NCBI GenBank assembly: GCA_039621445.1
Contig: CP154954.1
Coordinates: forward strand, 13,744,387-13,808,386
Source: Euglena gracilis
Taxonomy: Eukaryota
Direction of reading: 5' to 3'
Length of the DNA: 64,000 nt
Shown: one piece after another, positions 5,250 through 62,954 of the stretch
Numbering within the stretch: position 1 is the stretch's first letter
How the letters are laid out: every line of letters starts with the position of its first letter
The notes under the pieces: generated by a model
The model's input: only the letters and a program-made list of their open reading frames with translations
Told to the model about the DNA's origin: nothing
Databases searched by the model: none
Translations under genes and position numbers: made by a program

Positions 5250-5692
5250 AGTGTACGTCCCGCTCTTTCTCTTTCGCTTTCCCCTTTTTCCCAGAAAAGG
5301 CGCGGGAGTAACAAAGATAAAAATTATAACCCTTTGTCTCCTTTATGCAGAGCACAAGGCAAAGGGAGGGAAGGCTTTGTTTTGAGACCGGAGTCCCTTT
5401 TCTGTTGTTCTTGTTGACCTCTTCGGTTCTTGATAAAGAGAACAAAAATAATTGTAAAGATTGGGGTCTTCGCCCCTCAAGAGAAAACCTACTTACAAAA
5501 CTATCCCAATAAAACCTCAAGCTAAGTAGGAACCAAGTGTTTCTTATTCTGCAGGAGAATTCCCTAACTGGGACGTCATCGCCAGTTAGTGCAGAATCAC
5601 ATAGCACTGTGTGCAGCTGGCCAAAGGCCAGTTAACAGGCATTCGCCCTTTGTAGCAGACAATGCCATCGCATCATGGCTGCCTGGTACACA
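5250..5692 (-). repeat. 3' LTR of element E (443 bp)
   Basis: Direct repeat of 16213-16656; followed on the + strand by TCCCCCTCCC (reverse complement of PPT GGGAGGGGGA). Confidence 0.9.
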
Positions 5693-7034: not shown

Positions 7035-7655
7035 CGGGGGGGTGTGACTTCTCACTGTCAACGGGGGCGGGGCTGTGGCTTCGCACGTTAGTGGGGGGGT
7101 TGTGACTTCGCACACTTGGGGGGGCTGTGACTTCGCACATTCGGGGGGGGGGGGGGCTGTGACCAGGCACTGCCGGGGGGGTGGGGTGTGGCTTCGCACT
7201 TCCGGGGTGGGGGGGCTGTGGCTTCGCACATTCGGTGGGGTGGGCTTTGACTTCGCACATTCGTGGGGGGGGGGGCTGTGGCTTCTCACATTCGGCGGGG
7301 GGATGTGACTTCACACTTTCAGAGGGTGGGTGGTGACTTCGCACCGTACTGCCCGGGGGGGGGGGGCGGGTGACTTCGCACCGCACTGCCAGGGGGGGGG
7401 GGGGCTGGTGACTTCGCACCGCTCTGCGGGGGGCGGGGGGCTGGTGTCTTCGCACCGCACTGACAGGGGGGGGCTGGTGACTTCGCACCGCACTGGCGGG
7501 GGCGGGGGCTGGTGACTTCGCACCACACTGCCAGGGGAGGGGGCTGGTGACTTCGCACCACACTTCCAGGGGGGGGGCTGGTGACTTCGCACCGCACTGC
7601 CGGGGGGGGGGGGGGGGTGGTGGCTTCGCACCACACTGCCAGGGGGGGGGGCTGT
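7035..7655. repeat. G-rich minisatellite, ~25-38 bp units with core G(A/G)CTTCGCAC
   Basis: Roughly 18-19 cores, each followed by a G-run. Confidence 0.9.
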
Positions 7656-16212: not shown

Positions 16213-16656
16213 AGTGTACGTCCCGCCCTTTCTCTTTCACTTTCCCCTTTTTCCCAAAAAAGGCGCGGGAGTAACAAATATAAAAATCATAAACCCTTTG
16301 TCCCCTTTACGCAGAGAACAAGGCAAAGGGAGAGAAGGTTTTGTTTTGGGACCCGAGTCCCTTTTCTGTTGTTCTTGTTGACCTCTTCGGGTCTTGATAA
16401 AGAGAACAAAAATAATTGTAAAGGTTGGGGTCTTCGCCCCTCAAGAGAAAACCTACTTACAAAACCATCCCAATAAAACCTCAAGCTAAGTAGGAACCAA
16501 GTGTTTCTTATTCTGCAGGAGAATTCCCTAACTGGGACGTCATCGCCAGTTAGTGCAGAATCACATAGCACTGTGTGCAGCTGGCCAAAGGCCAGTTAAC
16601 AGGCATTCGCCCTTTGTAGCAGACAATGCCATGGAATCATGGCTGCCTGGTACACA
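16213..16656 (-). repeat. 5' LTR of element E (444 bp)
   Basis: Direct repeat of 5250-5692; followed by TSD AACAT. Confidence 0.9.
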
Positions 16657-26067: not shown

Positions 26068-26516
26068 TCTTGGTAGATTTTGTCCCGCAAGACCAGTCCT
26101 TCATAGTCCTGTTCATACACCAGTTCAGCCACCTTTTCGCCTTGTGTTTCCTGTCCTTCTGGCACCACCACAACACCGTGAACCCTGTAAGATTTTGTTT
26201 GCCGATTTCCGAAATTTTTTTTCCAGTGTTTCCAGTGTTGTTTCGTCTTCGAACAGTTTTTCCTCGTCCTGGCCCGCTTCAGCAGGAATCTGCAAATTCA
26301 TTGCCCGCACTGCCGAAATGTTTTTCTGAAGTTGGTGTATTTTCCGTTCCCTGTGTTTTTGTTCCTTCAGCTGGTGCCAACTGGACAGCAGCCGCAGTGG
26401 TTCACCTATGAGGATTGTAGGTTTGGGAAAACCCCCAGTTGGTGTTGTTCCATCCACGGATACCCGAGGATGTCATCCACTTGGATGTCGGCGTCATGGA
26501 ATGTTCGAGTGGTGGA

Positions 26517-26849
26517 TCATTCCCTTGATCTGTCCGTTCGAATGGTGGACCATTCCCTTGCTCTGTCCGTTTTGTGCACCCGTGATGAAAACAGCAGTTC
26601 CAGTGTGACTTCGTGTAAACCTCCTTCCATCCTTGTTCCGTCCGCTGTGATCAGGGCCAGGGGTTTTTGTGAACGTCCGAAGTTTTGTTGGGGAATAAGG
26701 TTCTTTTTCACCAGGGTTGCCTGTGCTCCCGTGTCAATCGGGGCCGGTAGGAACATTTTTTTGCCGTCCGGCAACACAGCACGGACATCAACGAGGAGTT
26801 GTTTTGCTTTCTTTCTGCAGACGACCTGCCCCAGCAGGAGTTTGGACAC
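26517..26849 (-). pseudogene. Aspartic protease of element C
   Basis: IDTGAQATLV...LITADGTRMEGG. Confidence 0.85.
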
Positions 26850-27035
26850 CGGTTTACACAGTCGTTTTGAAAGCCGAATGTTTTGGTCAGGTTCCGTTTT
26901 GTCAGTTGAATCTGGGTTTGGCTTTTGACATGTCAGTTCTGGGCTGGGCCGTGAGAGCGTATTTTGTCGTGCAGTCTGGGCAGGGCTGGGATTCTGCAGC
27001 GGTTGTTGCTGCGCGGCCTGGGCTTGGCTGGTCTG

Positions 27036-27639
27036 CTATAGCCGTTCGTGGAACCCCGCCAGGTCCTGAATCAGTTGTTCTGGGATCCTGAATTTTTTGA
27101 AGGCTGGAATGTTTTGTTCGTTGCTGAGTTTCACCGGGTGACCTCTACTGTTCGGGTCCAGGTTTTTGCAGCTTTTTCCGTCACACCGTTTTGCTGGTAC
27201 CTGCAGGATTTCAGGGCTGCCCCAGATTAGTGTTGGTTTTTTGTAACCACAGTCTGTGTATTGACAGTAATCCACGTCAATGTACGGCTACGGTTTCATG
27301 TAATCTCGTTTTGCCAGGTATCGGTACCTTGGGTTTTCCAGACCACAATTTCTGCGGCTGCAGAAATTCCACAATTTACAGGGCTTTCTTTGCAAGGCTG
27401 TCTCCCTTTTCCAGGTTTCTGGGTCTTGTCGTCAGTGCAATGCTTAATTCTGTGCATGGAACTCCACAAACCACCGAGTGGAATTCGCCAGGTTTGAAAT
27501 GCTTTCTGACGTCCCAGTCCAGTACGTCCAACTGGTAATCCGCTTTCCACCTGTGGTCTGAATCCACCGTCACCACCTCGAAACCCATTCTTTCATACAC
27601 CTTGCTGACCGATTTTGTTCCACAGAACAGGTCCAGCAT
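27036..27639 (-). pseudogene. C5-cytosine DNA methyltransferase of element C (frameshifted)
   Basis: MLDLFCGTKS, GVPCTELS, LENPRY (shifted frame), DYCQY..GYKKPT.IW, FRIPEQLI. Confidence 0.9.
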
Positions 27640-27893
27640 TTTGGTTTTCGATTTTACGCTGTGGCCCGTTCTGGTGTCGCTGTGGCCGCCTCCTGCAGTT
27701 TTCTGATGTGTTTCTGTGTTTTTTCTGTCCCAAGACCAGCTTTTTGTTCACCACCCTCCACCTCGTCCTCCACCGGCGGGTACTGGTGGGCTGTGCCAAA
27801 CCTCACCTTGGATGTCGGGTGTCGGGGAGTGAAAAGTTTGTGGAAATCAGGTAGGTACTTGCACCGTGTTCTGTGTCCGCATACCAAAAACAC

Positions 27894-28290
27894 TTACACA
27901 GGCCACGGTGTATTCGTGCAGTTCTTGTCACCGTGTCCGAACAGTTTTTTTCCCGCTGGGACGAACATTGACGTCACTGCCATTTTTTTAATTTCCCTGT
28001 ACCATCGTCTGTGGACCAATCTCGGTACCATGAGGAGTGCATGTGCCTCGTCCGTTTGAATTTTTTTCACCACCTGTGAAATTTTGCTGAATGGGGGGTT
28101 CATCCACAGTAGTTTTCCGTACCATTTTTTTTTCAAAGGCGTCAGTTCCATCCGGGCTGCCTGATCCACACCATCGCGGGAATCTTTTGTTTTTTTTTCT
28201 GTTGCAAAAGGCATCCAGCTGGGGCTGGACCCCGAAGTGTGAGAGAATTTCTGTCATTTTTTCTTCCTTCATGTGGTAGTTTTCAGACAC
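27894..28290 (-). pseudogene. N6-adenine (Dam/DIRS-MT-like) methyltransferase of element C (frameshifted)
   Basis: LDAF...NKRFPRW...DAF...LWMNPPFSKI..VVKKI..DEAHALLMVP. Confidence 0.85.
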
Positions 28291-28526
28291 CCACCGTGAA
28301 GTTGCTCTGCCGAACTTGCAGCTGACCTGTTCCCTTTTCGGTTCTGGGCTGTGGAGTCGTTTTTTTTTGTCAGGATATGTTTCTTGTGAGGTTTTTTCTT
28401 ACCTCCCATACCCAGTGTGTATGACTGCTGCGGCTCTGGACCTGGGTCCCTTGTTGTTTTCTGTTGTTTCGGTTGTGTCTGCAGAGAGTTGCCCCTCTGG
28501 TCCCATACCCTGAGGCCGCAGCCCCT

Positions 28527-30300
28527 TCACTTCCGTTCTGCGTTTTGAACTGGCTGCCAGCGATTGCTGGAAGATGCTTCTGCCTTTGGCTGTCCCTGTG
28601 GCTGGTTAGCTGGCTCCTGTGAACTGGTTTGCTGTGGCTGTGGTTCAGTTTTTGTTGCTGCTGGCTGTCGCTGTGGCTGCCCTTTGCCATATCCTTTCCC
28701 GCTCCCCTTCCCAGAATCGTATCCTTTCCCAGAGTTGTATCCCTTTCCTGACTCGTAGCCTTTGCCGTAATTCTGATTCCAGTTCTGGTTCTGGTTCCAG
28801 TTTTGGGTTGAACCCCAGTTTTGACGTTTCCTCTTTCCTTTGCCTTTGCCCCAGTCGTTTTGTCTCCAGTCTGACCAGTTGGTGTACCGTCCCTGGCCAG
28901 GCTGTTCTGAAACTGCCATGGGCACCTGCTGCCGTGGAGAAGGGGGTCTGGGTTTTTCATGTGTTGGGGTTCGAGGTCCAGGGGAGTTGGGTCGTGATCT
29001 GTAAGGTGGTGTCCGCCTTCTAGATTTTGTTTACTCCTCCTCCTTGACTTCCCTGACGTAACCCCTGCGGTCCATCGACCGTGACCTGTTTTCGCGAGGT
29101 TGGTTCTGCCAGCCGTTGTACCCCCTACTCAGGGAGTCTGAATGTTGTTGGAACCTGAGTTCGGTTTCCACCCGTTGGAACAGTTCGTCCAGAGTCAGTC
29201 TTGCTTGCACTTGTGTGAAGTGTGGTTTATGTCCAGTCAGCAACGTTGAACCGTTTTTCATCAGGAGCAGTTCAGCAGCTCTGCAGCTATGCAGTTGGAT
29301 CCTGAAGATTTGTCCGTCTCGTGCTACCTGAAACTTCTCACCTGTACCCACAGTTGCTGCCACCAGGTCACGAACGTCTTGCGTTGTTGCATCGGGTACG
29401 TTTGCAATGTTCGTGACCCCTTTCAGTTTCAGTGTTGGTCTGTCCTTTATTTCTGCGGTCCTGTTCCCTGATGCAGCTTCTGCGTTGCGTTCCAGGCATT
29501 TTTTCAGCCACCAGGTTGTACACGTCTTCCTCTGATGGATTTTCCAGCCTGCTGTAGGGTAGTTTGAAATGGGCTTCAAACGACCTCCACGCCTCCAGTG
29601 TCAGTTTTCCTTCCGTTTTTGGTGTTAGGTTTTTCAGTTCGTCTTTGATGGCTGATTGTGTGTCTCCACCGTATTTTTGGCACATCCAGTTCCAAAATTC
29701 CTGGTATTTTATTTTCTCACCGCCTTCCTGTCTGCGTTGTAGTTCCAGTTTGCTGGCACTGTCCAGGCTGCCCTCCAGCTGTGACAATTTCAGGTCATCG
29801 GTCAGGGACCCCTGACCGGCTGACACACGTTGCAGGTACATTGGAAATTTTATGGCAAAATATGCGAAATTCCCCTGCAGTGTTGGTCTTAACAGGTCTT
29901 TTGTCCTTGCCGCGCCCACTGGACCCAGCAGCAGCCCGAAAGATGCAGCCGGGGCCGTTGCCACGGGTGCCACCACTGTTTCCTCTCCTATGTGGTGGAT
30001 GGCAGTTTGGGTAGACCCCATCTGGGGTCCCACCCAGGTTGTTGTGGCTGTGTTTTGGGTTTCTGTTTCGTCTGCCCACATGAGCAAGCCCCGTGTCCGG
30101 GACTGTGGGTTTTGTTTTGCTGTCACTGGCTGTGAAGTCTGTTGAGTCGGCTGGTTTGGATGTGGTGCTGGGCTTGTCGGGTTTGTCGTAAGTGCTCGGC
30201 TGGTCGGCACTGCAGTCGGTCGTTGTTCTGTCTGTCGAGTCAGCTGGGCGATTAACGGTGTCAAGGCAGTTTTCAGTTCCTGTTGGATGAGCTGCCCCAC
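28527..30300 (-). pseudogene. gag-like region of element C
   Basis: ORFs 29368-30300, 29031-29579 and 28527-28925 align by eye with A gag. Confidence 0.8.
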
Positions 30301-36635: not shown

Positions 36636-37316
36636 TGTGCGCGGTCCGAGGGTGCCCGCCCCAAGGAGGGGTCCCAAGGGGGCCCAAAGGGGCCACGAAG
36701 GCCCGCGAGGGGGCTCCAAGGCCCCCAAGGGCCTTTTGAGGCCCCACTGGCCCCCAAGGGGGCCCCACAGCCCATTTTGACCAAGCCAAGGGAAGGTAAA
36801 GGAGGGGGCAGGTTGAGGGGGCCAACAGGCAACCCCCAAGGGGATGCGCAAGCCCTGCTGGGCTTTGCGCAAGCATGCGCACCCCCTTGGTGGGCGCTCA
36901 GATGGCGCAATTCATTAAGAATTGCGCAAAGTATACCAAGTAGCCCCCCCAGCTGTAGCCCCCTCCAATTGTACATTTTCTGTTCACAGGGCTCTGTTCA
37001 CACTCTGTTCACATCATTTGTGTCACCAATTGTTTGCTTGCAAGCCAATTCAAGGAAATCAAGGAAATACAAATTACAAATTTCAAGTTCAAGTCTCATT
37101 GATTATTCAAGTATTCAAATTCATTTGTTGAAGCAAAAGTATGTCTTTTCCCAATCCTACAGCTTCACCTACACCAACACCAACCCCTACCCCTCTGTTT
37201 CACCAAGGGGAAAACCCCCACCAGGTGGGCCCGACGGGCTCAAATTTAAACGATCCTACGCGGGTTGTGCCGCCAGGGGTCCCTTCACAGGGACCTCAGG
37301 AGGGGCAACCCCTACA
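36636..37316 (+). repeat. 5' LTR of element A (681 bp)
   Basis: Differs from 49813-50494 by about five substitutions and one indel by eye. Confidence 0.95.
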
Positions 37317-37335
37317 TGGTCGCAGAGGAGGGTTT
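37317..37335 (+). promoter_or_regulatory. PBS of element A (tRNAi-Met-like)
   Basis: TGGTCGCAGAGGAGGGTTT immediately after LTR CA; two differences from the canonical TGGTAGCAGAGGATGGTTT. Confidence 0.85.
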
Positions 37336-40300
37336 GAGCCCTCTGGGCTCACACTATGTGAGCCTGGGGAGCCCAGACTCCCAGATTATGAATCACAGGA
37401 GGACAGCGACGAAGAAGCAAGCCACAGCCATGACAGCCCCAGCCATTGCGGCCAGGGCCAGCAGCTCCTGGCCATTGCCGGGCATGCCCAGCCGGACCCC
37501 CAGCAACCAGAACCATCTGGGTCCGGCATGGCATTGCCCAGCAGCCTGGGAGGGCTCTCCGGCATGCCCAGCTTTGTGCCAGGGTTTGTGCATGACATGA
37601 CCAGGCAGGTCATGTGGCAATTTGCAATGCGAGGGAAGATCAAAGAAGAAGAGGAAGAACCGGCAGAAGAAGAAGGCGAAGAAGAATTTGCAAGCCATGC
37701 CCAGCCACTTTTACTGGAGGCGGGGCCCTGGCAGAACCCCGGGGATGCCGGGCCGGCACATGCGCCGGTGGGCCATGTCGGGTCTGGGCATTTCTCCGCC
37801 GGACCCGACCATTGCTCGCTGGTGCATGCCGGTCCCGGGCATGATGGGCCCCAAGGACATGCCCCAGACCCAGCCACCCAGTGGCAGCTGCAGGAGCTGC
37901 CCCCAGCAGGGGATTTGATGGAGGACGAGGACCAGACAGCCCAGGGGGGGTTGGTGCCAGAACAGAGCCCGAAGGGGAGGCACCCCCCGCACCCCCCCCA
38001 GAGGTTGTGGGAGGAGGCGGAGGCACAGGCCGCTGCCTCAGTGGTTCTGGGACAGGAGATCCAGCGGTTGGACGGTTGGGGTGGCGACCTGCAAAGTCGG
38101 CTCGCTGAAGCGGGGGTCACCACAGCTGCTTCAGTTAGCCGCCTGGAGCAGTTGGTGTCCTTGCAGTTTCAGCGGGTCACGGAAAACTTTCAAGGAGTGG
38201 TGCAGCAAATGGAAAGAACCCAGGCTGGGCTAGCGTCCCAGCTGGCTGAAAATTTTCAAAATCTGCAGCAGAAGCAGATGGAAAATTTTTCTGGGGGGAT
38301 GACAGCCCTGAGCGAGCTGGTGACCAACCGGCTGGGCGAAAGCCTCGGGACTGTGGCCCAACTAGCCCAGAGGGTCCAGGGGCTCGAGGCCATCGCCAGC
38401 CAGGGTCACCAGCCAGCTGAGGGGCAGGGGTTCAACGAGGCGATGGCTGGGCGGGTGAAAAAATTTGAGGAGCTGCTCATCACCTCCGTCCGGACGACGA
38501 AGGAGGTGATGAGGAGCCAGGAGCTGGCCAGCGGGCCCAGGCCGAGGCCCTGGACCAAAAATTAGACCAGCTGACGGGTGAACTCGGGGGGCTGCGAGAA
38601 AGAAATGCAGGGATTGCACAGGCCCTGCAAAATTTTCGAGCAGAGCTGGACGGACAGGCCACAGCCATCGCTGAACAACAAGGGACCATAAGGGAAGACA
38701 TAAGGGAGCTAAGGGCCAGGGCTGAGGGGCAGGGCCACAGCCTGCAGGAGCTGTGGGCCGAGGTCACCACCCACGGGCAGGTGATCCAGGCCCACAACGC
38801 CCTGCTCCTGGAGGTGGACTTAACAATAAAGAGGGTACCAAAAGAAAATGCCGAAATAAAAAATCGGCTTTTGGTTTTAGAAAAGAAAATCGAAAATTTT
38901 GAAATTTTTTGCCCCCCCATCCAGGAGTTACCGCAGCCACCCAGAGGAGTGGGGCCGGAGAGCGAGGACCCCCGAGGCCCCGAAGCCAGAGTGCCCCCGG
39001 CAACCACGACTCCCAGACCCAGTCAACGCCGGGGGCCCAGAGTGCCAATGGCTCGGGTGCCGCGGGGGGCAATATGCCTCCTGGCCCCCAGCACCAGCTC
39101 CCAGTCCATCCCGGCGTGCTGGGAGGCAAGGGGCCCGTGGCCCCCCAGGGGCTCTCTGCTGGCCCCAGCAGCGGGGCAGCGGGGGCAGTGGCCCACACAC
39201 CCGGGGAAGTGGTTTCCCCGGGCCCAGCTTCTGTAACTGCAGTTTTTCCCAGTGGGTTCTCGGGTTCTGGCCCCCAGAGGGGCAGGAGTGTTGTCCCTGA
39301 TTCTTCGGCAGAGGGGAATGCAGCACCCCCAGCCAGCGGGGGCCCTTCGGCACCAAGGGGCAGCCAGCCCCAGGGTCCCATGGCTGCGGGGGGTAGCCAG
39401 CCCCAGGGCCCCATGGCTGCGGGGGGCAGCCAGCCCCAGGGTCCCATGGCTGCGGGGGGCAGTCCGGTCCAGGTCCCCGCTGCTGGAGGGACCCCAGCTG
39501 GCCAAACACCTGGCACGTTCGGGTTCCAGGGGGTGGATTGGGAGGAAGCGGAACACCAGATTAAGGCTCACGGATTTTTTAATTTTTTGGCCAGGTTGGG
39601 AGCCCAGGAGCAGCAGCAACAGTCTCAGCAAAATTCACGAACAACGGGACAGTCCAGCACAGCGAAACCACGGGCAGCAGGCACAGCAGATCTACAGGGC
39701 CAGGGCAGGGGTCAACCAGGGGTGAAATCAGCCGAGCACCAGTGGCCCCCCCAGCCCCGTGGGTTCCCCGCAGGAGGGGAGTTCACGGGGGCAATGGACC
39801 CTTTCGCCTGGGCCCCTGAGGCTGGGGCAGCATCGTGCAGCGCTGCCCCTCTGGCCTTTGGGTCCCAGGACACGGGAGCCTGGGTCCGGGGGGTCCAGGC
39901 AGCTCCGGTCCACGTGGCACCAGCAGCCCCCAGCCCAGCAGCCAGCATGTTTTTGGGGCCGCTGGCGACACTCCTCACCAAAGACCTTGCAAAACCAGAG
40001 CTGAAAGGTGATTTTCATGATTTTTCAGTAAAATTTCAGCTCTACATGCAGCAGGTTTCCATGGGACGGCCAGTGGGGGAGGAATTTAAAATGCTTGTTC
40101 TGACCGGCTGCCTGGACCACAGCAGCCGGCTGGAACTCCAGCGGCGACAGGAGATGGGGGAACGGGTCAGGTTCCAAGATTGGCTGGCCCAGAAATATGG
40201 CGGCGACATCCAGGCCTCGCTGCATGAGCAGCTCAGGAGCCTCAGACCGGTCAACACAGGCAAGTTGACCCTCCCGGCGTGGCGTGAATATGAAAGTCAG

Positions 40301-41281
40301 TCTAAATTAATTTTATGCCGGATGGAAAACCCCTCTGAGGAGGAAGCACAGGCTCTGGTTCTGCAGCAGCTCCCAGATTCCATGCGTAGGGCAATAATCA
40401 GGGAGCAGACCCGAAAAAATCAGGATGCGCCCACAGTGCGGCTGTGGCACATCCCTGGGTTGACGGCGGAAAAGGCAACACAGCTCGCCCAGGAGGCTGT
40501 GGGTGAGGGGGAGCCGGTGACAGTCAGGGCACACCGGGACTCCTTCCTCATCAAGCTCTACAGCCGGCCGGCGCTGGAGAGGCTGATGATGAGGAACGGG
40601 GCCACGCTGCAGGGGGGCAATACAGTGAAAATCACCCCCCACGAAACAAAGCTGGGATTGGAAGAGGTTTTTCGACACGCTGAAAATGAGCTGCGGTGCC
40701 AGGAACGGTCTGACAGCTATGGCCGTTCTTGGGGTGGACGGGGGGTCCCAGCCCACCAGGAGGACCACTGGGCTGGGGGCCTCGACAATTTTTCAGTCTC
40801 TGAGGTAAAATCCCAGGAAGCCAGGCCAGCCCAGCCCCAGAAAACGGTTTCACAGCCAGCTGAGGGAGGAGCAAAGGCAGGACCCCCCAAAGGCCCTGAG
40901 GGGCCACAGGACAGGCAATCACGGCACCGGGGCGGGTCTCCTGGAAAGGGACGGGAGGGACGCAGGTCACCCAGCCCGGGGCAAAAGGGGAAGGGGTTCG
41001 GCAAGGGAGCTGGCAAGGGCGGCTCAGAGTTTCGCCCAGCCAGGTCCCCAACCCCTCACCCAGCCACCAACAGGGAACAAACCCCCCCGAGGAGCCCCCG
41101 GAGTAGCCCCTCGGTGGACCAGCCCTGCAGCCAGTGCGGGGCCACAGATCTCTGGTCTCAGGAATGCCCTGGAAAAAAATGTTATGAGTGCGGGAAAACG
41201 GGACATCTGGCACGATATTGCTGGTGGAGAAAGGGAAAGGGGAAGGGGGCGTCCACACCCCCACGGCGGGGGAGTGCCTGA
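37336..41281 (+). pseudogene. gag: gag of element A: acidic/coiled-coil N-terminus, GSQPQGPMAAG repeats, capsid-like region, two zinc knuckles
   Basis: ORFs 37141-38565, 38781-39236 and 38909-41281 joined by frameshifts; CSQCGATDLWSQEC and CYECGKTGHLARYC. Confidence 0.85.
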
Positions 41282-41941
41282 AAAAGCGGGGGCCAGAAGG
41301 GAGGGGACGGGTGCCCAGGGTGCCCCCAGCACGGCCCTCGGAAGGGGGGTAAGGAACAGGCTCACGGAGAGGGTTGGGTTTTGGTCAAGGGCAGATCCGG
41401 ACCTGGACCTGCACGGTCCCCCCAGCCCCCCCTGACTGAGACACGAAAAGGGGCTGGGGGGGGCCAGCAGGCCCTCTCATTCGACTCTGCCAACCCCTGG
41501 TCTGCGCTTTTCACCAGTGAGGGCAGTCCAGGGGGGGGCTCGGGTCAGAATCCAGGCACGGGACAAAGGGAGAAGGGACACAAGGCGGCTGGCCCTCCGC
41601 AGCAAGCCGCCCAGGGGTCTTCGGGTTCCAGCACACCCAGTCTACCGCAGATCACAACACCAGGAAGGGAGGGGAGAAACACAAAACAAAAAAAGAAAAA
41701 AGAAAAAAACAAAACGCTCTCACAGGCATCAATCAGGGAGGCAGCAAGGGAGGTCATCAACGTTCCCCAAACCAGTAAGGGCACGGATGAAACCGCCCCC
41801 AGCACGGAAAGGGATTCAGAGTTTTTGATTCGCCAGGTGAGGTGCGTCAGGACCGCACCTTCCACCTCAGCCCCCACACCACAGCCAGCCCCAGCACCAC
41901 TCCCAGCCCGTTCCTCAGGGTTTGGGAGGTCGCCCTCCCGG

Positions 41942-42360
41942 TGGATTTCCCAGGACTACCACGTCCGGGAGGAGTACGTCAGGGACGTACTCCGCCGCCT
42001 GGGAGTCTACCCGGAGGTCGACGCCTTTTCTGCCAAAGAAAACCGCAGGTTCGTCCGCTGGTGGGGCCAGGGAGCAGGGAGGGAGAAGATGCCTTCAAGC
42101 AGGACTGGGGCAGGGAGGTTTTGTGGATCAACCCACCTTATAAAAAAATAGAGGAGGTTCTCGGAAAAATCAGGAGGGATCAGGCCCATGCCATCCTGGT
42201 GAGCCCCAGGTGGCCGGGGCGGCGTTGGTACAGGGAGGCCAGGGGCTTGGCTGTGCGCCAAGTCACGTTCCCTCAGGGAACACGATTTTTCGGCAGAGGG
42301 GAGGAGTTGTGCCAGGGGACCAAGTGGCCCATCACAGCCTTTTTGCTGTGTGGGCACCCA
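41942..42360 (+). CDS. N6-adenine DNA methyltransferase domain (Dam/DIRS-MT-like) of Pol; 1-bp deletion in a G-run at ~42065
   Basis: VDAFSAKENRRF..WW, DAFKQDW, LWINPPY (NPPY 42130-42141), ILVSPRWPGRRWY; frame is intact in copy B. Confidence 0.9.
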
Positions 42361-42519
42361 GACCGGTGCACGCTGGAGGAGGTGACACGAAGAGGGAGGG
42401 AGAAAAAAACCAGGTTCGGGACACATTTTTCAGGGCCACCCCCAGGGACCGGGGGGGCCACAGGGGAGGTCAAGCCGGCACACCTGGGGCAGGTGGGGAG
42501 AGCGGACCAGCCCAGGCGG

Positions 42520-43120
42520 ATGCTGGACCTGTTCTGCGGGACAGGTTCAGTAGGGGACGTCTACCGCAGCCTGGGTTACCAGGTCACGTCGGTGGACGTG
42601 GACCCCAGGTGGCGGCCAGACATTTGTGTTGACGTGCTGAAATGGAATTTTAAAAAACAGTTCCAGCCTGGGGATTTTGAGGTGGTGGTGTGCGGGGTCC
42701 CCTGCACCGAATTCAGCCTGGCGCTGACCACCAGGGAACGAGATTTAAAATTGGCTGATCGGCTGGTGCAGCGGGCCCTGGCCATCATCAGATACCTCCG
42801 CCCACGGCGGTGGTGGCTGGAAAACCCCCGGTACGGTTACCTGCGGACCCGCAGGTACATGGCAGGGATCCCACACGTGGATGTGGATTACTGCCAGTAC
42901 GCTGACTGGGGCTACCAGAAGCCCACCAGGATATGGGGCAGCCCCCATGTCCTGGGTCTCCGGCCACAGGTGTGTGACGGCCGGACCTGCACCAACCTGG
43001 AAAGCCCAGTACCTGAGGGGGGACGAAAGGGACGGCACAAAATTCGGCTCAGCAGCAAACACCAAAACCTTCCCAGGCACCTGAAATATCGGATCCCAGA
43101 GGCGCTCATCCGTGACCTGG
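42520..43120 (+). CDS. C5-cytosine DNA methyltransferase domain of Pol, apparently intact
   Basis: Motif I DLFCGTGS, motif IV GVPCTEFS (PC 42700-42705), motif VI ENP (42820-42828), DYCQY..GYQKPTRIW, C-terminal YRIPEALI; in frame with the N6-MTase C-terminal half and the protease. Confidence 0.93.
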
Positions 43121-43239
43121 CCACAGCACCAGCACCGGAGGCCCACGCTGCCGGGTCTCCGGAGCCAGAGCGGGACCCCCAGACAGAGCGAGGGGTGCCC
43201 TCGGTCTTGCTCCGTGAGGTGGGGCAGGGTGCCAGTGAA

Positions 43240-43620
43240 CGGCAGCTGCTGATGCGGGTGCAGGCCAGGGGGCCAGACGGACAGACCCACTTCATCAACG
43301 CCCTCATTGACACAGGGGCAGAGGTGAACCTGGTCCGAAGAGGCATGCTACCCAGCACATACCTCCTGCCTGCCCCCAAGCCCCTGTCCCTGGTGACGGC
43401 TAGTGGAGCCAAGATGGAAGGGGGGGAACGTGAGGCAACCCTGGGCCTGGTCCTCCGGCGGGAGGGGGGCCTGGGTCAGGGGGAAGGGGCCCTGTGGACG
43501 GCCCCAGCCTCCTTCTATGAGGCAGACATCCACGTGGAGGCCATCATCGGCTTTCCGTGGCTGGAGGAAAACCAGCTTGGGGTGTTTCCACATCTCCGAG
43601 CCTTGGCATTGAGGGGAGAG
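43240..43620 (+). CDS. Retroviral-type aspartic protease
   Basis: ALIDTGAEVNLV...AIIGFPWL. Confidence 0.92.
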
Positions 43621-43713
43621 CAGGTGGTCCTCCTTCGGGGACGTGATGCGGAGGGTGAGCAAGTTCAGCCAGCAGCCCACAAAAAGGCACAAAAGTGAGC
43701 GAGATACCTGAAA

Positions 43714-45550
43714 ATGGTGGAAAAAGTCAGAGCACTGCGGCTTGCTTTGCCAGAGGCAGCCCTGGGGGAGGACACCGAGGTGCCTGAGTGGGAGGAAAAC
43801 CCCCTGCACGAGGATGAGGCGACCCAGGAGACAGTGGCCAAGGAACTCCTGCGGGCAGCCCGGGAGGTCGAAGCACGGGCAGCCCAAGGGGTCATCCTTG
43901 TTCCCGAAGGGGAACAGGTGACCAGCCAGCGGGCTGAGGAGCTCCGGGCAGCCCTCCGGAGTGACTTCGAGGGGGAGGTTCTCCGAGACAGGATTTGGGG
44001 GGAAAGAATCGTTCGGGGGCCCCTGGGGGAAGGGAAAATCGAATTAAAACCGGGATCTGTGGCAAAGAAACAGAGGCCCATCCACCTGACGGGGGAGAGG
44101 CACAGGGCCTTGTGTGACCTAGTGGATGAGTGGGTTCGGGACAAGAAGGTGGAGGAGGGGGTGCCAAGTGCCTGGAGCAGCCCCACATTCGTGGTGGCCA
44201 AGAAACAGGGGAAGTGGCGTGGGGTTGTGGATTTCCGGGCATTAAACGAGGCCACAGTGACGGATGCTTACCCCCTCCCCAGGATTGAAGACATCCTGGT
44301 GAACCAGGGACGGAGGTACCTGTTCTCCGTCCTTGATCTCAAGGATGCCTTCCATCAGGTGCCCCTGCACGAGGACTCACGCCCATACACCTGCTGCAGC
44401 ACCCCCCGAGGGTCCAAGCAGTGGTGTGTGGTCGTGATGGGCCTGAAAAATGGAGTGGCCATTTTTCAGCGGGTGATCGAGTACTCGCTGAGGGAAGTGG
44501 CTGATGTCGCCAACCCATACGTTGACGACATCATCGTGGGGACAGAGTGGTGTGGCACGGAGGAAGCTACCATGGAGGCACACGACCAGGACATCAGGCG
44601 AGTGTTAGGGGACCTGCGGGAACACCGCCTAGTCGTGGACAAAAACAAGTGCCGCTTCTTCGTAAGAGAAGTGGAATTCTGTGGCCACATCCTGGGGGGA
44701 GGAAAACGAAGGCCAGCACCGGGCAAACTCATGGCGCTGGAGAAGTGGGAGGAGCCCCGCACGATCACAGCCCTCAGGGGCTTTCTGGGCTTCACCAACT
44801 ACTACTCCAGCTACGTGAAGGAGTATGCCCGGTATGCAGCCCCCCTGATGGAACTCCTCAAGGTGGGACGTGTGGAAGGGAAAAAAGGCAGCAAAAAACC
44901 TGTGAAATTCGGCCAAACGGAACGGGAGGCCTTCACCGCCCTGAAGCAGGAGCTCCTCCGAGGATTGGAGCTCCACACCATCAACCCGGACGAGCCATTT
45001 ATCCTCCGGGTAGATGCGAGCGACAAGGCGGTGGGGGCAGCCCTGGAACAGTTTTTGGAGCCAACAGAGGGGATGCCCACAGCCGTGGAAGCCACTACAC
45101 GGAAAACCGTGCCTGTGGCCTTCTGCTCCAGGAAACTCACGGCTGGGCAGGTGAAGAGCTGGTCTCCGCGAGAGAAGGAGACTTACGCCATCATCCTGGC
45201 CCTCCAAAAAGGGGGCCTCCTACATCGGCCTGCAGCCGGTGTTGGTCCTCACGGACCACAAGTCCCTGTAGGCCTGGGCCAAGGAGACCCTGGACACGCC
45301 CAGCGGACCTGCCGGGAGGCGGGGACGCTGGCATGAAATGTTCTCCCGGTTTGACCTTCACGTGGTCTACATCCCGGGAAAGGAAAATGTGGTGGCGGAT
45401 GCCCTCAGCAGATGGGCATATCCTGCCTCCAAGGCATTTGCCGACATCAGCCTCCACGGGAGCGAGGAGGATGATGAGGCAATGAGGGCCATGATCGAAG
45501 AAGAACGGAGGGAAGAGCGAGAATGCGGGACACCGCACGGGGGGGAGTAA
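43714..45550 (+). pseudogene. pol: Ty3/Gypsy reverse transcriptase + RNase H
   Basis: WRGVVDFRALN, YPLPRIE, LDLKDAFHQ, YVDDI, LRGFLG; RNase H VDASD, EKETYAI, TDHKSL, NVVADALSR; frameshift ~45210 and in-frame stops. Confidence 0.95.
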
Positions 45551-45556
45551 CTCCAC

Positions 45557-47533
45557 GTGGCGGTAACAACACGCAGTGGGAGAGACACAGCAGCACAGCA
45601 CAGACCTGGCCCCAGCCCCACAGAGGGGGAGGGGGCTGAGGATTCAGTGCCAGGGGGCCCTGGCCCTGACCCCACAGGGGGGGAGGGGCCTGTGGATGCC
45701 CCCTCGGGAGATTCGGGTCCCATCCTCATGGGAGGGGAGGGACCTGGGGGACCTGGGTTGGACACGCGGGAGACACGAGGTTCCCCACGTGCCCATCTTT
45801 TCGTGGATGAATTCGGGAATGAACAGCCGGCAAGAAGGGGCGGACCTGAGGAACACCAACCGGGGCGAAGAGTTCTGAGTGAGGACCTGCAGCTGACCCC
45901 CTCCATCGATGATCCCCACCGGGGGGATCTCGGGGAACCTGTGCGGGAACCAATTTCACTTTCTCCAGACACGGGGGTGCACACCCAGGAGGAGGTGGAG
46001 GAGGATCCCTCCATCCCAGTGATGGACAGGGATTGGTCACGGGCATATGAAAATTGCCCTGTGTGGGGGCCTGTTTATGCAAGTGTGCAGGCCCCTGCAG
46101 GAGAGTGGCCTGAGGGAGTCCGTCTGTACGAGGACAAAATGTACACGGACGGGCTCCTCTGTGTGCCCACCAGCCTGATGGGGCTCGTGGTCCGGGCCCA
46201 CCACGGGGACGCGGGCCACCCAGGAGCCTCCAGGCTCTGGCACCAGATGGGGCGGTGGTATAGGTTCGCAGATCCAAGGGGGGCAGAGAAAATCACCCAA
46301 GGCATCCAGCGGCAATGTGAAATTTGCCAAGCCTGTGACCCCTCTCGAGCACCTTTCAAGTGTGCTCTCGAAGCCACCCCTGTACCACCGTTCCTCATAG
46401 ACAGTGTGGCAGTGAACCTGTTTGCAATGCCTGAGGTGACCCACGAGGGCCAGGTGTATGATTACCTGGCCCTGTGCGTGGACCGTGAGAGTGGGTGGAA
46501 AGTGGCCACCCCCCACAAGTACAAGGGCCTGACAGCCGAGGTGGTGGCCAAGGCCATGTTCCGCCACTGGGACATGTTCGGGGTGCCCTCTGTGGTGACC
46601 TCGGACCGTGGCCCCCACTTTGCCTCGGCTTGGTGGCAAACAATGTGCGCCGCCATGGGGGTGAGGCGTGCCTACGGGCAGGCCTACCACCACCAGGCCA
46701 ACGGTCGGGCAGAGGTGGCGGGCCAACGGGTGATGAACACCCTGTCCAAGCTCATTGCCGACCTGTCGGAGAAGGAGGCCTCGTGGGTGGTGCTGTTACC
46801 CAAGGCCCTCCGGCACCTGCACGATGTGCCAGGGGAGTCCGGCTTGTCGCCCTACGAGGTGGTCTTCGGGCGGCACCGGCCACTCCAAGGCCTGCCCCAC
46901 CAGCCCCCACGAGAGGCCGAGGGGGCAGCCGACTTCATGGCACGGATGCGGGCTATGGACGAGAAGGTGGCCTTAACCTTGAATGCCTTGCACACCAAAC
47001 GGTGGGCTTCCCTCAACGCCAAGAGAAGGGACCCACCTCCCCTGGAGGTCGGTGCCAAGGTGTGGTACCGTCCCGAGACACAGCCGGGCACAGACAAGTT
47101 GGCCACCAAGTGGAAAAGGGGGACTGTGGTGGCCCGCCGGGGTCGCCACTCATATGTGGTGGAGCTGGCCCCGGGGGCCCGCCAAGAGACACACCGGAGC
47201 CAACTCAAGCTCCACGCGGAGGACGAGTTCTCCACCGACCCCCTCCCACTGTTCTATTTCAGTGACAAGGCGGCCCCCCTAGAGGTGGGACCGGATGAGT
47301 GGGTGGTGGAGGAGATTGTGAGCAGCCGGAACCACCCGGAAACGGGGGTCCCGGAATTTCAGGTGAGGTGGAAAAACTGGGATCCGACGGATCTCCAATG
47401 GCTGCCTTGGTCGGATTTCTTCCCCTCCTACAACGAGGATGTGGTGGATTATTGTGCAGCCAAGGGGATTCCGTTGGAGGTGGTGGGACTTCTCCGCCCC
47501 GGGAAGAGGGGGGGGCGGGGACGGGGTCAATAA
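45557..47533 (+). CDS. Integrase (HHCC + DDE core) with C-terminal chromodomain
   Basis: H..AGHPG...CEICQ; SVAVNLF (first D changed to N; D in element G), TSDRGPHF, NGRAE; chromodomain WVVEEIV...EFQVRWKNWDPTDLQWLP. Confidence 0.95.
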   Translation: MAVTTRSGRDTAAQHRPGPSPTEGEGAEDSVPGGPGPDPTGGEGPVDAPSGDSGPILMGGEGPGGPGLDTRETRGSPRAHLFVDEFGNEQPARRGGPEEHQPGRRVLSEDLQLTPSIDDPHRGDLGEPVREPISLSPDTGVHTQEEVEEDPSIPVMDRDWSRAYENCPVWGPVYASVQAPAGEWPEGVRLYEDKMYTDGLLCVPTSLMGLVVRAHHGDAGHPGASRLWHQMGRWYRFADPRGAEKITQGIQRQCEICQACDPSRAPFKCALEATPVPPFLIDSVAVNLFAMPEVTHEGQVYDYLALCVDRESGWKVATPHKYKGLTAEVVAKAMFRHWDMFGVPSVVTSDRGPHFASAWWQTMCAAMGVRRAYGQAYHHQANGRAEVAGQRVMNTLSKLIADLSEKEASWVVLLPKALRHLHDVPGESGLSPYEVVFGRHRPLQGLPHQPPREAEGAADFMARMRAMDEKVALTLNALHTKRWASLNAKRRDPPPLEVGAKVWYRPETQPGTDKLATKWKRGTVVARRGRHSYVVELAPGARQETHRSQLKLHAEDEFSTDPLPLFYFSDKAAPLEVGPDEWVVEEIVSSRNHPETGVPEFQVRWKNWDPTDLQWLPWSDFFPSYNEDVVDYCAAKGIPLEVVGLLRPGKRGGRGRGQ

Positions 47534-47630
47534 GGGGGGAGAGGGGCAGGAGGTGGAGGCGAGGGGACGGCGGGTGCGGGGATTGTGGTGGTGGCGGAGC
47601 ACACGCACATCCTTCGCTCTTGTGCGTAGG

Positions 47631-48156
47631 ATGCAGCGCTACGTGCCCCGTCGCCCCTACGTCCCTGGACCTCTCCCCGTCGCCCCCCCCGCCACCATCG
47701 GCCGCCGAGGCGGAGGCCGCCCTCCTCACCCTCTTGCCCGCCCCCAAGCGCCCCCGCCTGGACACCCCCGCGGAACCTCCCCAGCCGGCCGACTCTCCCC
47801 GACCACCGTCCCCCACACGCCCGGAGGACCTCCGCTCCCTGCTGGCCTACCTCGAGGGGCTGGCGGCGGAGGTGGAGCACCTCCGGAGCGTGGTGGGGCG
47901 GTTGGTGGGCGAGGGAGCGCCGCAGCGGGTGGATGCGGAAGTGCAGGCGGAGGCGCCTGGCGAAGGGGACGACCAGGGGAGCGAGGAGGAGGCAAGCGAG
48001 TCGGGGTCGTTGGACCTCCTCGCCGCGGCTGCCACGGCCGGGGACCCCGAGGCCGAGGACGCCGAGGGGGACCAGGTCGGGGAGCCCGGCGGGGTGCTCC
48101 AACTGCTCCTCGCGGAGTTCGAGCCCTTGTGGCCCGGCTCCGATGAGGACCCCTAA
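47631..48156 (+). pseudogene. Small extra ORF after pol in element A (NLS-like PKRPR, short coiled coil, acidic tail)
   Basis: MQRYVPRRPY... joins ...AEAEAALLTLLPAPKRPRLD... if one indel is assumed in the C-run at ~47683-47690. Confidence 0.5.
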
Positions 48157-49801
48157 GCCCCCCCCCGCCGACCCAGACGTAGCCTGGGCCGGCTTACCTG
48201 TGGAGGCTAGCCCACCGGGGGGGGGGGGGCAGAAAATGGGGTTGGTGCGGAAAACCTTGGAGGGACCGAGCTGATTTCCTTTGTTTGTTGTTGTTGTTGT
48301 GTTTCGCAGGTTCAATCTCAATTTCAATTTCAGCGAAGTCAATCCCACAGTGCCCCTTGGCTACGGGCGAGGGGGCCAGGAGGGGCGACGGGACGCCCGG
48401 GTGGGGCGAGGAGGCCACAGGAGCACACCGGGGGGGGGGGGGGCCCAAGGGTTGAGGGGGCCCACAGACCCCCCAAGGCTGGCCTCGCCCACCCGCGGCC
48501 CACATAGCGCCCCGAGGGGCAAGCGCCCCACGAGATGAGGCGCCCCACGCGCCGCACGTGCACCACACCGCACGGTGCGGCGCCCGAGGGGCCCACAGGG
48601 GGTCCACAGGCGCCTGCGGGCCCGAGGGCCCACAGGGCCACGGAGGCCCCACGGGTGCCTCGAGCCCCGGGTGTGCATTATTTTTTTCCTTTTTTTTTGA
48701 GCCCTTCAAGTGTTCGGTCGATCTCCATTTCATTTTCGTGTTGCGTTGTCATTAGGCGGTGGGGGTACCCCGTGGCCAAGTTGGCTCCGGGGGGGGGGCA
48801 CCTGCCCATTTTGTTCGATTTTTGATGGTTGGCCACACCCCTCTTCGGCCCACCGTGCCGAGGGAGGGGGGGGGGGGCGCCTGCCAATTCTTCCCGATTT
48901 TGACGGTTGGCTACCCCCCTCATCGGCCCACAGCGCCGAAGGAGGGGGGGGGGCTGCCAATTTTTGACCGATTTTTTTTTTGCGGTCGTCCACACCCCTC
49001 CTCGGCCCACCATGCCGGGGGAGGGGGGGGGGGCGCCTGCCGCTTTTCCACCAATTTTAAAAAAAAATACACCCCGTCGGCCAATTTTTGAAGTTAACCA
49101 CGCCACGGGGGGGGGGCAAGCGCCAACCCCCCTCCACACCGGAGGGAGCGGGGGGGGGGCAGCCCCCAGCTCCCCCTCTCAAGAGGACGGGCCACGGCCA
49201 AGGCGGCCCAGCCCACAACGCGGGGGGGGGCAGCCCCGACCCCCTCCACGGGGGGGGGGGGGGCAGCCCCCTCCTCCAAGGAACGGGCCCCACCCAAGGC
49301 GCCTCCCCGGCGCCCCCTCCAGCACGCACCCCTGCCAAGCCCCCGGGGGGCTTTGGCCCCTGGATACCGGGCAGGGCGGGGCGGCCGTGCTGGGTTGGTC
49401 AAATGTTTCCTTCCCAACATGCCGGAGCTTTCCACCCCGGGCCAAGCGGGGCCTGGGGGGGGGAATCACAATTACACATTGGCATCGAGTATTGCGGGGG
49501 GGGGGCAGTCCGCCCCTACCCATGGGCCAAGAAGGCTCACGGGACCAGAGGGGGAGCGGAGGGGCCCCAAGCGGTGCCTCCCCGGGTCACGAGCCCGGAG
49601 GCGCCCGTCCCCCTTCTCGCCCCTCCCCTGTACCCCCTCCCCGACAGCACGCGCCACACACGGCACGTGGCGCCACCGCTTGTGCGTTTCAACAAGAAAA
49701 AAATACAAATTTTTTCAGAGGCGGGAAAGCAAAAGGGAGGGGGGGGGGTGGCACCTCGGACCGGCAAAGGAGTCGAATTTAAATTGCACGGCAATTTTTT
49801 T

Positions 49802-49812
49802 GAGGAGGGAAG
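49802..49812 (+). promoter_or_regulatory. Polypurine tract of element A
   Basis: GAGGAGGGAAG directly before the 3' LTR. Confidence 0.85.
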
Positions 49813-50494
49813 TGTGCGCGGTCCGAGGGTGCCCGCCCCAAGGAGGGGTCCCAAGGGGGCCCAAAGGGGCCACGAAGGCCCGCGAGGGGGCTCCAAGGCC
49901 CCCAAGGGCCTTTTGAGGCCCCACTGGCCCCCAAGGGGGCCCCACAGCCCATTTTGACCAAGCCAAGGGAAGGTAAAGGAGGGGGCAGGTTGAGGGGGCC
50001 AACAGGCAACCCCCAAGGGGATGCGCAAGCCCTGCTGGGCTTTGCGCAAGCATGCGCACCCCCTTGGTGGGCGCTCAGATGGCGCAATTCATTAAGAATT
50101 GCGCAAAGTATACCAAGTAGCCCCCCCAGCTGTAGCCCCCCTCCAATTGTACATTTTCTGTTCACAGGGCTCTGTTCACACTCTGTTCACATCATTTGTG
50201 TCACCAATTGTTTGCTTGCAAGCCAATTCAAGGAAATCAAGGAAATACAAATTACAAATTTCAAGTTCAAGTCTCATTGATTATTCAAGTATTCAAGTTC
50301 ATTTGTTGAAGCAAAAGTATGTCTTTTCCCAATTCTACAGCTTCACCTACACCAACACCAACCCCTACCCCTCTGTTTCACCAAGGGGAAAACCGCCACC
50401 AGGTGGGCCCGACGGGCTCAAATTTAAACGATCCTACGCGGGTTGCGCCGCCAGGGGTCCCTTCACAGGGACCTCAGGAGAGGCAACCCCTACA
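49813..50494 (+). repeat. 3' LTR of element A (682 bp)
   Basis: Direct repeat of 36636-37316. Confidence 0.95.
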
Positions 50495-51307: not shown

Positions 51308-51573
51308 TCAAAAACTTGTCATGGAAACATCAATGTTATGCTTCTTGTTCCACAACTTCCAATCTTGCTGGACGTACCCAACAAAACTGGTTGCTTGCTC
51401 CCAAGTGTCCTCCTCGGGCCCATACCCTTTCCAGAGGACTTTCCAAAGGTGCATACCTTTGTCGATTTTGTGATCGATAATTTTATCGACTCCAAAGTCG
51501 TCCGTCTCAGGTAATCTGGAACGGGGCTTGAAGTGCAAGCACGGGATGGGTTTCCCATCCGGCGGTGACAGGT
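51308..51573 (-). pseudogene. Integrase C-terminus/chromodomain of element D
   Basis: FGVDKIIDHK....LWKVLWKGYGPEEDTWEQ; cut upstream by element B. Confidence 0.9.
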
Positions 51574-57430: not shown

Positions 57431-57590
57431 AGACTGATGCACGCGGGAGGAGGTGACACGAAAGGGGCGGGAGAAAAAAACCAGGTTTGCGACACATTTT
57501 TCAGGGCCACCCCCTGGGACTGGGGGGGCCACAGTGCAGGTCAAGCCAGCATTCCTGGGGCAGATGGGGAGAGCGGACCAGCCGAGACGG

Positions 57591-62917: not shown

Positions 62918-62954
<37 letters not shown>

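Follow-up and report, generated by a model that had tools for sequence, protein, structure and literature searches.

A decayed Ty3/gypsy-type retrotransposon copy with a putative adenine-N6 and cytosine-C5 methyltransferase cassette between gag and protease

RESULTS

The stretch of DNA analyzed here (the window) is a repeat-rich, 64-kb segment of a eukaryotic genome (Euglena gracilis, contig CP154954.1, positions 13,744,387 to 13,808,386) that contains four related long terminal repeat (LTR) retrotransposon copies, denoted A, B, C, and D. Element C encodes, between gag and the protease (PR), two putative methyltransferases (MTases), a Dam-like adenine-N6 MTase (N6MT) and a compact cytosine-C5 MTase (C5MT), and is a pseudogene, with six in-frame stop codons and three frameshifts within 1.9 kb. 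The most probable interpretation, to which a probability of about 0.8 is assigned, is that C is a decayed, 3'-truncated copy of a Ty3/gypsy-type family of very high copy number, the N6MT-C5MT cassette of which is homologous to that of A and B and has been under purifying selection. Selection acted on the family, not on the dead copy C. The features of C, including a stub of the region upstream of the reverse transcriptase (RT), and its lesions are as follows (positions within the window).

29958-26068, minus strand: element C as a whole, with gag, N6MT, C5MT, PR, and RT stub
29109-29958, minus strand: gag core in two frames (profile of the A gag, E 2e-47 and 2e-15; tblastn, 36-47% identity)
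27792-28296, minus strand: Dam-like N6MT, with NPPF at 28100-28089
27643-27791, minus strand: linker 1 (N6MT to C5MT), the counterpart of which is predicted to be disordered in the related protein P0005
27054-27642, minus strand: compact C5MT of ~200 amino acids (aa), with DLFCG, VPCTE, ENPR, DYCQ, and KKPT
27633-27619, minus strand: C5MT motif DLFCG (DLFCGT.S)
27462-27448, minus strand: C5MT motif VPCTE (PC)
27338-27327, minus strand: C5MT motif ENPR
27242-27231, minus strand: C5MT motif KKPT
26817-27053, minus strand: linker 2 (C5MT to PR), rich in Q, P, and A
26412-26816, minus strand: retroviral-type aspartic protease, with DTGA at 26735-26724
26068-26411, minus strand: pre-RT stub (tblastn, residues 55-100 of the A RT match 26204-26073)
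27896-27894, minus strand: in-frame stop in the N6MT
27656-27654, minus strand: in-frame stop in linker 1
27378-27376 and 27290-27288, minus strand: in-frame stops in the C5MT
27038-27036, minus strand: in-frame stop in linker 2
26519-26517, minus strand: in-frame stop in the protease
28125, in an A-run, minus strand: frameshift in the N6MT
about 27639, minus strand: frameshift at the junction of linker 1 and the start of the C5MT
about 27342, minus strand: frameshift in the C5MT
near 29448, minus strand: frameshift in gag, specific to C (other copies leave out one base there)

An original prediction, made from the sequence alone, had described the order gag-N6MT-C5MT-PR in C with the motifs NPPF, DLFCG, PC, ENP, and KPT, and each of these was recovered where it had been placed, on the minus strand. 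The similarity to A greatly exceeds what chance would give. When the window was searched by tblastn, the N6MT-C5MT-PR frame of A matched 28181-26412 (E 4.4e-81) and the gag of A matched 29934-29112 (E 3.3e-57). Domain profiles were run on a read-through translation of C in which X was placed at the breaks, yielding E values of 1.7e-70 for the N6MT, 8.8e-91 for the C5MT, and 6.8e-41 for PR; these scores are not fully independent, because the profiles include the close relative P0005. Pfam alone gave weak matches on the broken pieces of C: Dam (PF05869) scored 23.4 bits (E 5.4e-5), short of the cut-off of 28.1, and protease families reached E 0.004-0.009. Domain profiles on both elements gave the same order, gag-N6MT-C5MT-PR, in C and A, and the predicted difference in composition was borne out as well, with 32.4% A on the coding strand of the C cassette against 21.1% in A. 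Neither the 5' end of C nor its LTR could be located, and visual inspection of the translated stretch 29108-28351 revealed no CCHC knuckle. The RT of C is lost save for the stub, and no integrase (IN) is left.

Element A, the reference for these comparisons, is arranged as follows.

36636-50494, plus strand: element A, a full-length LTR element (LTRs, primer-binding site, polypurine tract, and target-site duplication)
36636-37316 and 49813-50494: LTRs of element A, 99.1% alike, with TG..CA ends
38903-41281, plus strand: gag with CCHC
41945-42423, plus strand: N6MT, with one frameshift
42517-43125, plus strand: C5MT
43225-43623, plus strand: PR
44149-45228, plus strand: RT-RNase H
46136-47230, plus strand: IN
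about 47300-47416, plus strand: chromodomain (weak match)

The target-site duplication of A is 4 bp (GCGG), the primer-binding site begins with TGG, and a purine tract precedes the 3' LTR. The order gag-PR-RT-RNaseH-IN, with IN after RT, is that of Ty3/gypsy elements. The chromodomain of A is a weak match to Pfam PF00385 (E 1.1e-4; 22.4 bits against a cut-off of 25.1), and the domain passes this cut-off in the metagenomic relatives P0024 (31.7 bits), P0030 (28.2 bits), and P0032 (27.4 bits). Within A, gag and N6MT share one frame with a lone TGA between them (41279-41281), and PR and RT are likewise parted by one in-frame TGA (43696-43698); these codons could be read-through signals or simply decay. 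Frameshifts lie inside the N6MT (41945-42079) and before IN. Between the IN-chromodomain region and the 3' LTR lie ~2.3 kb (47534-49812), and the long open frames of this 3' region (47299-48156, 48904-49782, and 49061-49957) had no Pfam match.

Other copies of element C and an intact relative

Contigs from four public sequencing runs were aligned to element C. The frameshifts of the cassette are absent from the other copies, which leave out one base at 27341 and 28126 and have one inserted behind 27638. The alignments break off at 26068 in all four runs, where the other copies continue with unlike sequence; thus, 26068 marks the truncation point of C. The family is very abundant, with 3557 contigs from one public run aligning to C. 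Runs recorded or guessed as RNA also contain contigs that resemble C at 93-95% across almost the entire element; these were not counted as transcription because DNA carry-over is possible. Apart from stops and frameshifts, the C5MT of C carries substitutions at two near-invariant positions, W131C and R138L.

In a search with the N6MT-C5MT-PR frame of A, 8000 candidates were scored and 22 proteins, all metagenomic, reached E <=0.001; 10 further, longer relatives were added. A close relative of C is P0005 (544 aa), in which one open frame spans N6MT-C5MT-PR and which is identical to C at 85% (N6MT), 92% (C5MT), and 88% (PR) of positions. P0005 has a sense codon at five of the six stops of C, the sixth lying beyond its end, and it exceeds the Pfam thresholds for both Dam (31.9 bits, cut-off 28.1) and DNA_methylase (22.6 bits, cut-off 22). 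It is also as K-rich as C, which indicates that A-richness is a property of the coding, functional family, not of decay. The contig that encodes P0005 was not among 80 metagenome loci, the best of which was 44% identical.

The methyltransferases are more conserved than the linkers

Elements A and C were compared over aligned codons across the N6MT, C5MT, PR, and the two linkers, with pN and pS denoting the proportions of nonsynonymous and synonymous differences.

N6MT: 46% aa identity, pN 0.36
C5MT: 56-57% aa identity, pN 0.28
PR: 41-47% aa identity, pN 0.33, pS 0.61
Linker 1: 38% aa identity, pN 0.48-0.51 (range for both linkers)
Linker 2: 35% aa identity, pN 0.48-0.51 (range for both linkers)

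Both MTases have diverged less than the linkers, so that this check did not refute the original prediction. The values of pS in the MTase domains and linkers (0.73-0.89) are at or near saturation; the nominal dN/dS (ratio of nonsynonymous to synonymous substitution rates) of 0.13 for the C5MT is unreliable at such depth. The same gradient is seen between A and P0005, with 64% identity in the C5MT core, 47% in the N6MT, and 23-24% in the linkers. For the more closely related pair A and B, dN/dS is 0.32 over 372 codons (N6MT, 0.45; C5MT, 0.28). Across five full polyproteins, identity ranges from 48 to 71% for RT, 42 to 59% for the C5MT, 31 to 46% for PR, and 26 to 43% for the N6MT; the C5MT is conserved nearly like RT and above PR or N6MT. 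Across 104 rows, conservation is at least 90% in the catalytic PC, ENP, and KPT columns of the C5MT (including C63, E102, and N103); across 11 rows, it is at least 85% in the NPP columns of the N6MT (N63, P64, and P65). Even the dead copy C retains 28 of the 32 C5MT columns and 24 of the 25 N6MT columns that reach these respective levels.

Enzyme class and predicted fold

The (D/N)PP(Y/F) motif reads NPPF in C and P0005, whereas A and B have NPPY. Against PF05869, the cut-off of which is 28.1 bits, pieces of A and B score 16-22 bits, and the relatives P0003 (30.8 bits) and P0022 (43.7 bits) pass. In the C5MT of C, the motifs DLFCGT.S, VPCTE (with the catalytic Cys), and ENPR are present, which correspond to motifs I (FxGxG), IV (PC), and VI (ENx) of C5 MTases. 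Pfam scores of the C5MT (15.8-29.9 bits) straddle the cut-off of 22. A structural model of the C5MT of A, built from a 43-row alignment, reached a predicted local distance difference test (pLDDT) score of 92.2, and Foldseek placed DNMT3B, DIM2, and DNMT1 on top (E 1e-7, probability 1.0). In a VIA-align comparison with 48,161 chains, the best matches were DNMT3B (Z 14.8), DNMT3A (14.3), M.HhaI (13.4), and DIM2 (12.1), with C5 MTases at Z 14.8-11 against about 9 for generic Rossmann MTases. DIM2, presumably a member of DNMT4, ranks no higher than DNMT3 or M.HhaI in the fold search. As modeled, the cassette C5MT adopts the C5-MTase fold. A sequence search of PDB with the cassette profile returned only weak, generic matches to S-adenosylmethionine-binding motifs, the best of them at E 0.0049, and placed DNMT1 at E ~0.1.

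The model of P0005 has confident domains at residues 1-145 and 208-430, with linkers 146-207 (pLDDT <50) and 440-473 predicted to be disordered. Its N6MT (1-153) matched the vertebrate cap adenosine-N6 methyltransferase 6irx (CAPAM; Z 10.7, root mean square deviation 3.6, 147 residues), an enzyme with an NPPF pocket; this match is a lead only, because it is a single N6MT row in a fold list made up mostly of C5MT matches. A weak match to the PCIF1 family was found in the N6MT of P0022 (E 0.0081).

These matches bear on the idea that the conserved domains are no longer DNA MTases and serve as binding or structural parts of Gag-Pol, or that the N6MT acts on RNA or RNA:DNA hybrids. The best solved match of the N6MT is an RNA-modifying enzyme, the PCIF1 match points the same way, and a 2026 preprint reports that eukaryotic retrotransposon DAMs expressed in E. 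coli yielded no N6-methyladenine (6mA) and raises a hybrid substrate for DAM (bioRxiv 10.64898/2026.05.21.726589). Conversely, the catalytic motifs (NPPY/F; PC and ENP) are among the most conserved columns, which argues for catalysis of some kind; de novo methylation of CG is reported for retrotransposon DNA methyltransferases (DNMTs) from other families (PMC5890265); and the CAPAM lead comes from one row. This idea is on balance rather unlikely.

Trees of the three domains

In a C5MT tree of 66 rows, sequences from retroelements group in a single clade (support 100), separate from environmental sequences of non-retroelement origin, and A/B and C/P0005 fall together in a 14-row clade (Shimodaira-Hasegawa-like approximate likelihood ratio test [SH-aLRT] support of 97). 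With wider sampling (57 multi-domain rows), the A/C clade has 13 rows (support 96). All of its members have the order N6-C5-PR or are N-terminally incomplete, and no conflicting order occurs. Approximately unbiased (AU) tests did not reject the N6-C5 rows as one clade in the N6MT tree (p 0.477) or the 14-row C5MT tree (p 0.259), nor, in the PR tree, a group of the nine rows that match the C5MT clade (p 0.338); the PR group was defined after the PR tree had been seen and counts for less. A clade of only the five rows labeled N6-C5-PR was rejected in the PR tree (p 3e-5), a grouping that is unsuitable because N-terminally truncated proteins of unsettled N6MT status fell outside it. Several clades are common to the PR and C5MT trees, namely, L009+P0010, P0027-29, P0030+L002+L004+P0016, and P0020+P0026+L008.

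P0025+P0022, a clade of the N6MT tree (98/97), was tried as a candidate conflict between modules and discarded: the AU test on the C5MT data did not reject it (p 0.439).

No incongruence among the N6MT, C5MT, and PR trees was found, and the N6MT and PR trees are weakly resolved, so that nonrejection is weaker than proof. The congruence that the original prediction called for is therefore unrejected, which says less than shown. Elements A and C also have in common their domain boundaries, an N-terminal extension of the N6MT (RW[IV]SxxY), and a C-terminal tail of the C5MT (KYRIPExL). Saturated sites with conserved MTases, a supported C5MT clade, and PR and N6MT trees that do not reject it together support shared descent under purifying selection.

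The same data speak to whether the lineages of A and C each captured both MTases and converged on one order. Convergent acquisition of DNMT and DAM by retrotransposons is documented in two studies (PMC5890265; bioRxiv 10.64898/2026.05.21.726589). Against it, A and C lie together deep inside the single retroelement C5MT clade, share the boundaries, extension, and tail just described, and show no conflict in the AU tests. Independent capture is disfavored and appears very improbable. The original prediction had argued for an old, selected architecture rather than a one-off capture, a view that the conservation of domains relative to linkers and the tree tests support.

Domain orders and virus-associated relatives

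A HMMER scan of 1.84 billion representatives with P0005 gave 4753 matches at E <=0.001, 1463 at 1e-10, and 180 at 1e-30. Both MTases were found in 29 of the 176 proteins fetched, in six different orders, each of which clusters in the C5MT tree.

N6-C5(-PR): 16 proteins
C5-N6: 4 proteins
PR-C5-N6: 3 proteins
C5-PR-N6: 2 proteins
N6-PR-C5: 2 proteins
PR-N6-C5: 2 proteins

P0024 has the order C5MT-PR-...-N6MT-RT-IN-chromo and, at residues 553-623, carries an SLBP histone-mRNA stem-loop-binding domain (PF15247, E 6.4e-23, 81 bits).

The modules are clearly mobile, which lends some plausibility to sideways movement of the cassette, with the N6MT-C5MT block recombined between the already diverged families A and C or drawn from a third element. 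Repeated DAM transfers between retrotransposon classes are inferred in the preprint (bioRxiv 10.64898/2026.05.21.726589), and the N6MT and PR trees are too weak for exclusion. However, C has no stretch that stands out for its similarity to A (gag 36-47%, N6MT 46%, C5MT 56-57%, PR 41-47%), the PR tree does not reject the group that matches the C5MT clade, and fine-scale PR and C5MT clades coincide. Such a transfer is unlikely, and vertical descent of the cassette from a common ancestor of A, B, and C is preferred.

Among the 80 metagenome loci, 7 contain retroelement domains and 73 the C5MT alone. Outside retroelements, the C5MT has its nearest relatives in stand-alone genes of ~200-210 aa on AT-rich contigs (32-37% GC), among them most of the loci L010-L080, with 28-38% identity to the cassette C5MT over the whole length and the same motifs. 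Three long C5MT-only contigs (32-36% GC) were scanned: L026 encodes a double-jelly-roll-type major-capsid N-terminal domain (37.3 bits), and on L051 and L064 a D5-like primase-helicase lies beside the C5MT. These stand-alone, virus-context C5 MTases form a separate clade (support 100), and leads from the ESM Atlas include clusters of ~210-aa C5 MTases, a few members of which are labeled viral. If the C5MT sister group indeed lies on capsid-bearing, polinton-like or giant-virus-like contigs, this would point to exchange between DNA viruses and retrotransposons. At L015 and L027, two C5MT copies stand in tandem.

A broader picture can be drawn tentatively, in which the A/C cassette is one branch of a large, environmentally widespread chromovirus-like radiation with permuted modules, a virus-linked C5MT, and a Dam-like domain that marks RNA. 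The region upstream of RT may there hold the N6MT, C5MT, and PR in six or more orders, produced by permutation and each fixed within a clade, and the Dam-like domain may mark the RNA of the element or its RNA:DNA intermediate rather than chromatin. As a whole, this picture is possible but doubtful.

Other elements in the window

The remaining relatives of the cassette and a retroelement fragment are the following.

51575-58255, plus strand: element B, sister of A, 89-92% nucleotide identity to A, ending just after the C5MT
57015-57353, plus strand: N6MT of element B
57588-58196, plus strand: C5MT of element B
58661-63962, minus strand: element D, a third, degraded lineage, with gag, C5MT fragment, RT-RNase H, and IN
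62053-61865, minus strand: C5MT fragment of element D, outside the A/C clade
51311-51919, minus strand: Chromo piece, from the Pfam scan of window ORFs

Element B is damaged by in-frame stops, and its motifs are altered to ENLW and KPTG. Between A and B (39348-43184 against 54428-58255), 45 of the 244 substitutions are transitions in CpG context, a type that accounts for several of the stops and motif losses of B (R to stop; ENPR to ENLW). The observed/expected ratio of CpG is 0.5-0.55 in both elements, and these CpG-context transitions and low CpG fit decay by host CG methylation. The C5MT fragment of element D groups weakly with P0019 (SH-aLRT 81) and has its highest similarity to P0022 (66% over 61 columns). 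A fragment of RVT_1 on the plus strand (61200-61853) occupies the expected place of the remaining C5MT and PR of D.

Outside the cassettes, a Pfam scan of 103 further open reading frames (ORFs) of at least 130 aa identified no host gene; it returned retroelement pieces only (the Chromo piece, rve and RNaseH in D, and the RVT_1 fragment), plus two subthreshold coiled-coil-type matches. ARAGORN and Rfam gave no match in the window. A 444-nucleotide direct repeat of 96% identity (5250-5692 and 16213-16656) encloses an 11.4-kb stretch that has no Pfam domain; the two repeats may be the LTR pair of an unrelated, nonautonomous or unknown element. Finally, a G-rich tandem array at 7036-7654 has units of ~29-30 nucleotides, with staggered self-matches at 74-79% identity.

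DISCUSSION

The window elements belong to a kind that has already been described. In a preprint from May 2026, Fernandez-Moreno et al. (bioRxiv 10.64898/2026.05.21.726589) reported EpiLTRs from Cymbomonas tetramitiformis and Euglena gracilis as LTR elements with DAM, DNMT, and chromodomain, the DNMTs of which form a sister clade to DNMT4. A full-text literature search for dual-methylation LTR retrotransposons found this preprint as its sole match. The combination of DAM and DNMT in one LTR element is present in A, B, and C. Like EpiLTRs, the window elements are Ty3/gypsy-like; A has the Dam-like MTase, the C5 DNMT, and a weakly matching chromodomain, and C has the two MTases. The Cymbomonas EpiLTR differs in that its DNMT lies at the 3' end of pol, whereas in the window elements gag and protease flank the two MTases; the Euglena type is said there to be arranged differently, and the window elements are likened to it by text description, not by sequence or domain order. 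They are a new member or lineage of the EpiLTR kind. New here are the position of the MTases between gag and PR, the many domain permutations, and the virus-context relatives of the C5MT.

More distant parallels share one of the two enzymes. DAM-LTR elements and DIRS elements encode a PF05869-type N6MT with an NPP[YF] pocket in a retrotransposon polyprotein, but the adenine MTase stands alone, and DIRS elements have a tyrosine recombinase and no protease (bioRxiv 10.64898/2026.05.21.726589; PMC5890265). De Mendoza et al. (2018, PMC5890265) reported that DNMTs occur in LINE-like and DIRS-like elements and in retrotransposons of charophytes and that DIRS elements also have Dam-like domains. Of these, SymbioLINE-Dnmt, SymbioDIRS-Dnmt3, and the charophyte Dnmt3 retrotransposons resemble the window elements in their embedded C5 DNMT, for which self-methylation of cDNA was proposed, and differ in belonging to other classes and DNMT families and in having no adenine MTase, as described there. 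The small C5 MTases of virus context have the same motifs but are free-standing genes in virus-like double-stranded DNA contexts.

Several observations weigh against the interpretation of C as a decayed member of a family with a selected, homologous cassette. RT, the usual yardstick of relatedness, is missing from C; all four copies in the window are damaged, leaving it without a working cassette; and A and C differ in base composition, which, together with saturation, makes estimates of dS unreliable. The assignment of both domains as MTases is read from sequence and modeled fold, and the E. coli result cited above is negative for 6mA. The data are consistent with joint descent of all three domains but do not demonstrate it. 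Nor is the pairing of N6MT and C5MT obligatory: within the A/C clade, P0009/L001 has no N6MT in the 131 aa/939 nucleotides upstream of its C5MT, and among 10 long polyproteins, 5 have the C5MT alone and 1 the N6MT alone. When an N6MT was sought with relaxed settings (E up to 10, filters off) ahead of the C5MT in L001-L008, no credible match emerged.

In the preferred interpretation, the gag-pol of the C family encodes a Dam-like (PF05869) N6MT and a ~200-aa C5MT between gag and protease, joined by disordered linkers, and the comparisons above show that the cassettes of A, B, and C derive from one common ancestor and have been kept by purifying selection beyond synonymous saturation. Judging from the anatomy of the elements and the two cited papers, both enzymes would be made within Gag-Pol and carried into the virus-like particle, where the protease would free them; the freed enzymes might then mark the newly made DNA of the element or the surrounding DNA. 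In such a scheme, 5-methylcytosine (5mC) would fit a CG-methylated host genome, and 6mA might imitate active chromatin.

No new category is opened by element C, given that the kind was named in the 2026 preprint and that this copy is dead. Nevertheless, the pairing extends beyond a single family, for two lineages with saturated synonymous sites keep the same cassette. Together with a C5MT nearly as conserved as RT and with relatives that are common in environmental data, this supports a real, selected function. P0005 and like sequences are intact natural members that are open to test. Retrotransposons with their own putative writers of 5mC and 6mA would be a striking case of parasites that handle the epigenetic code of their host.

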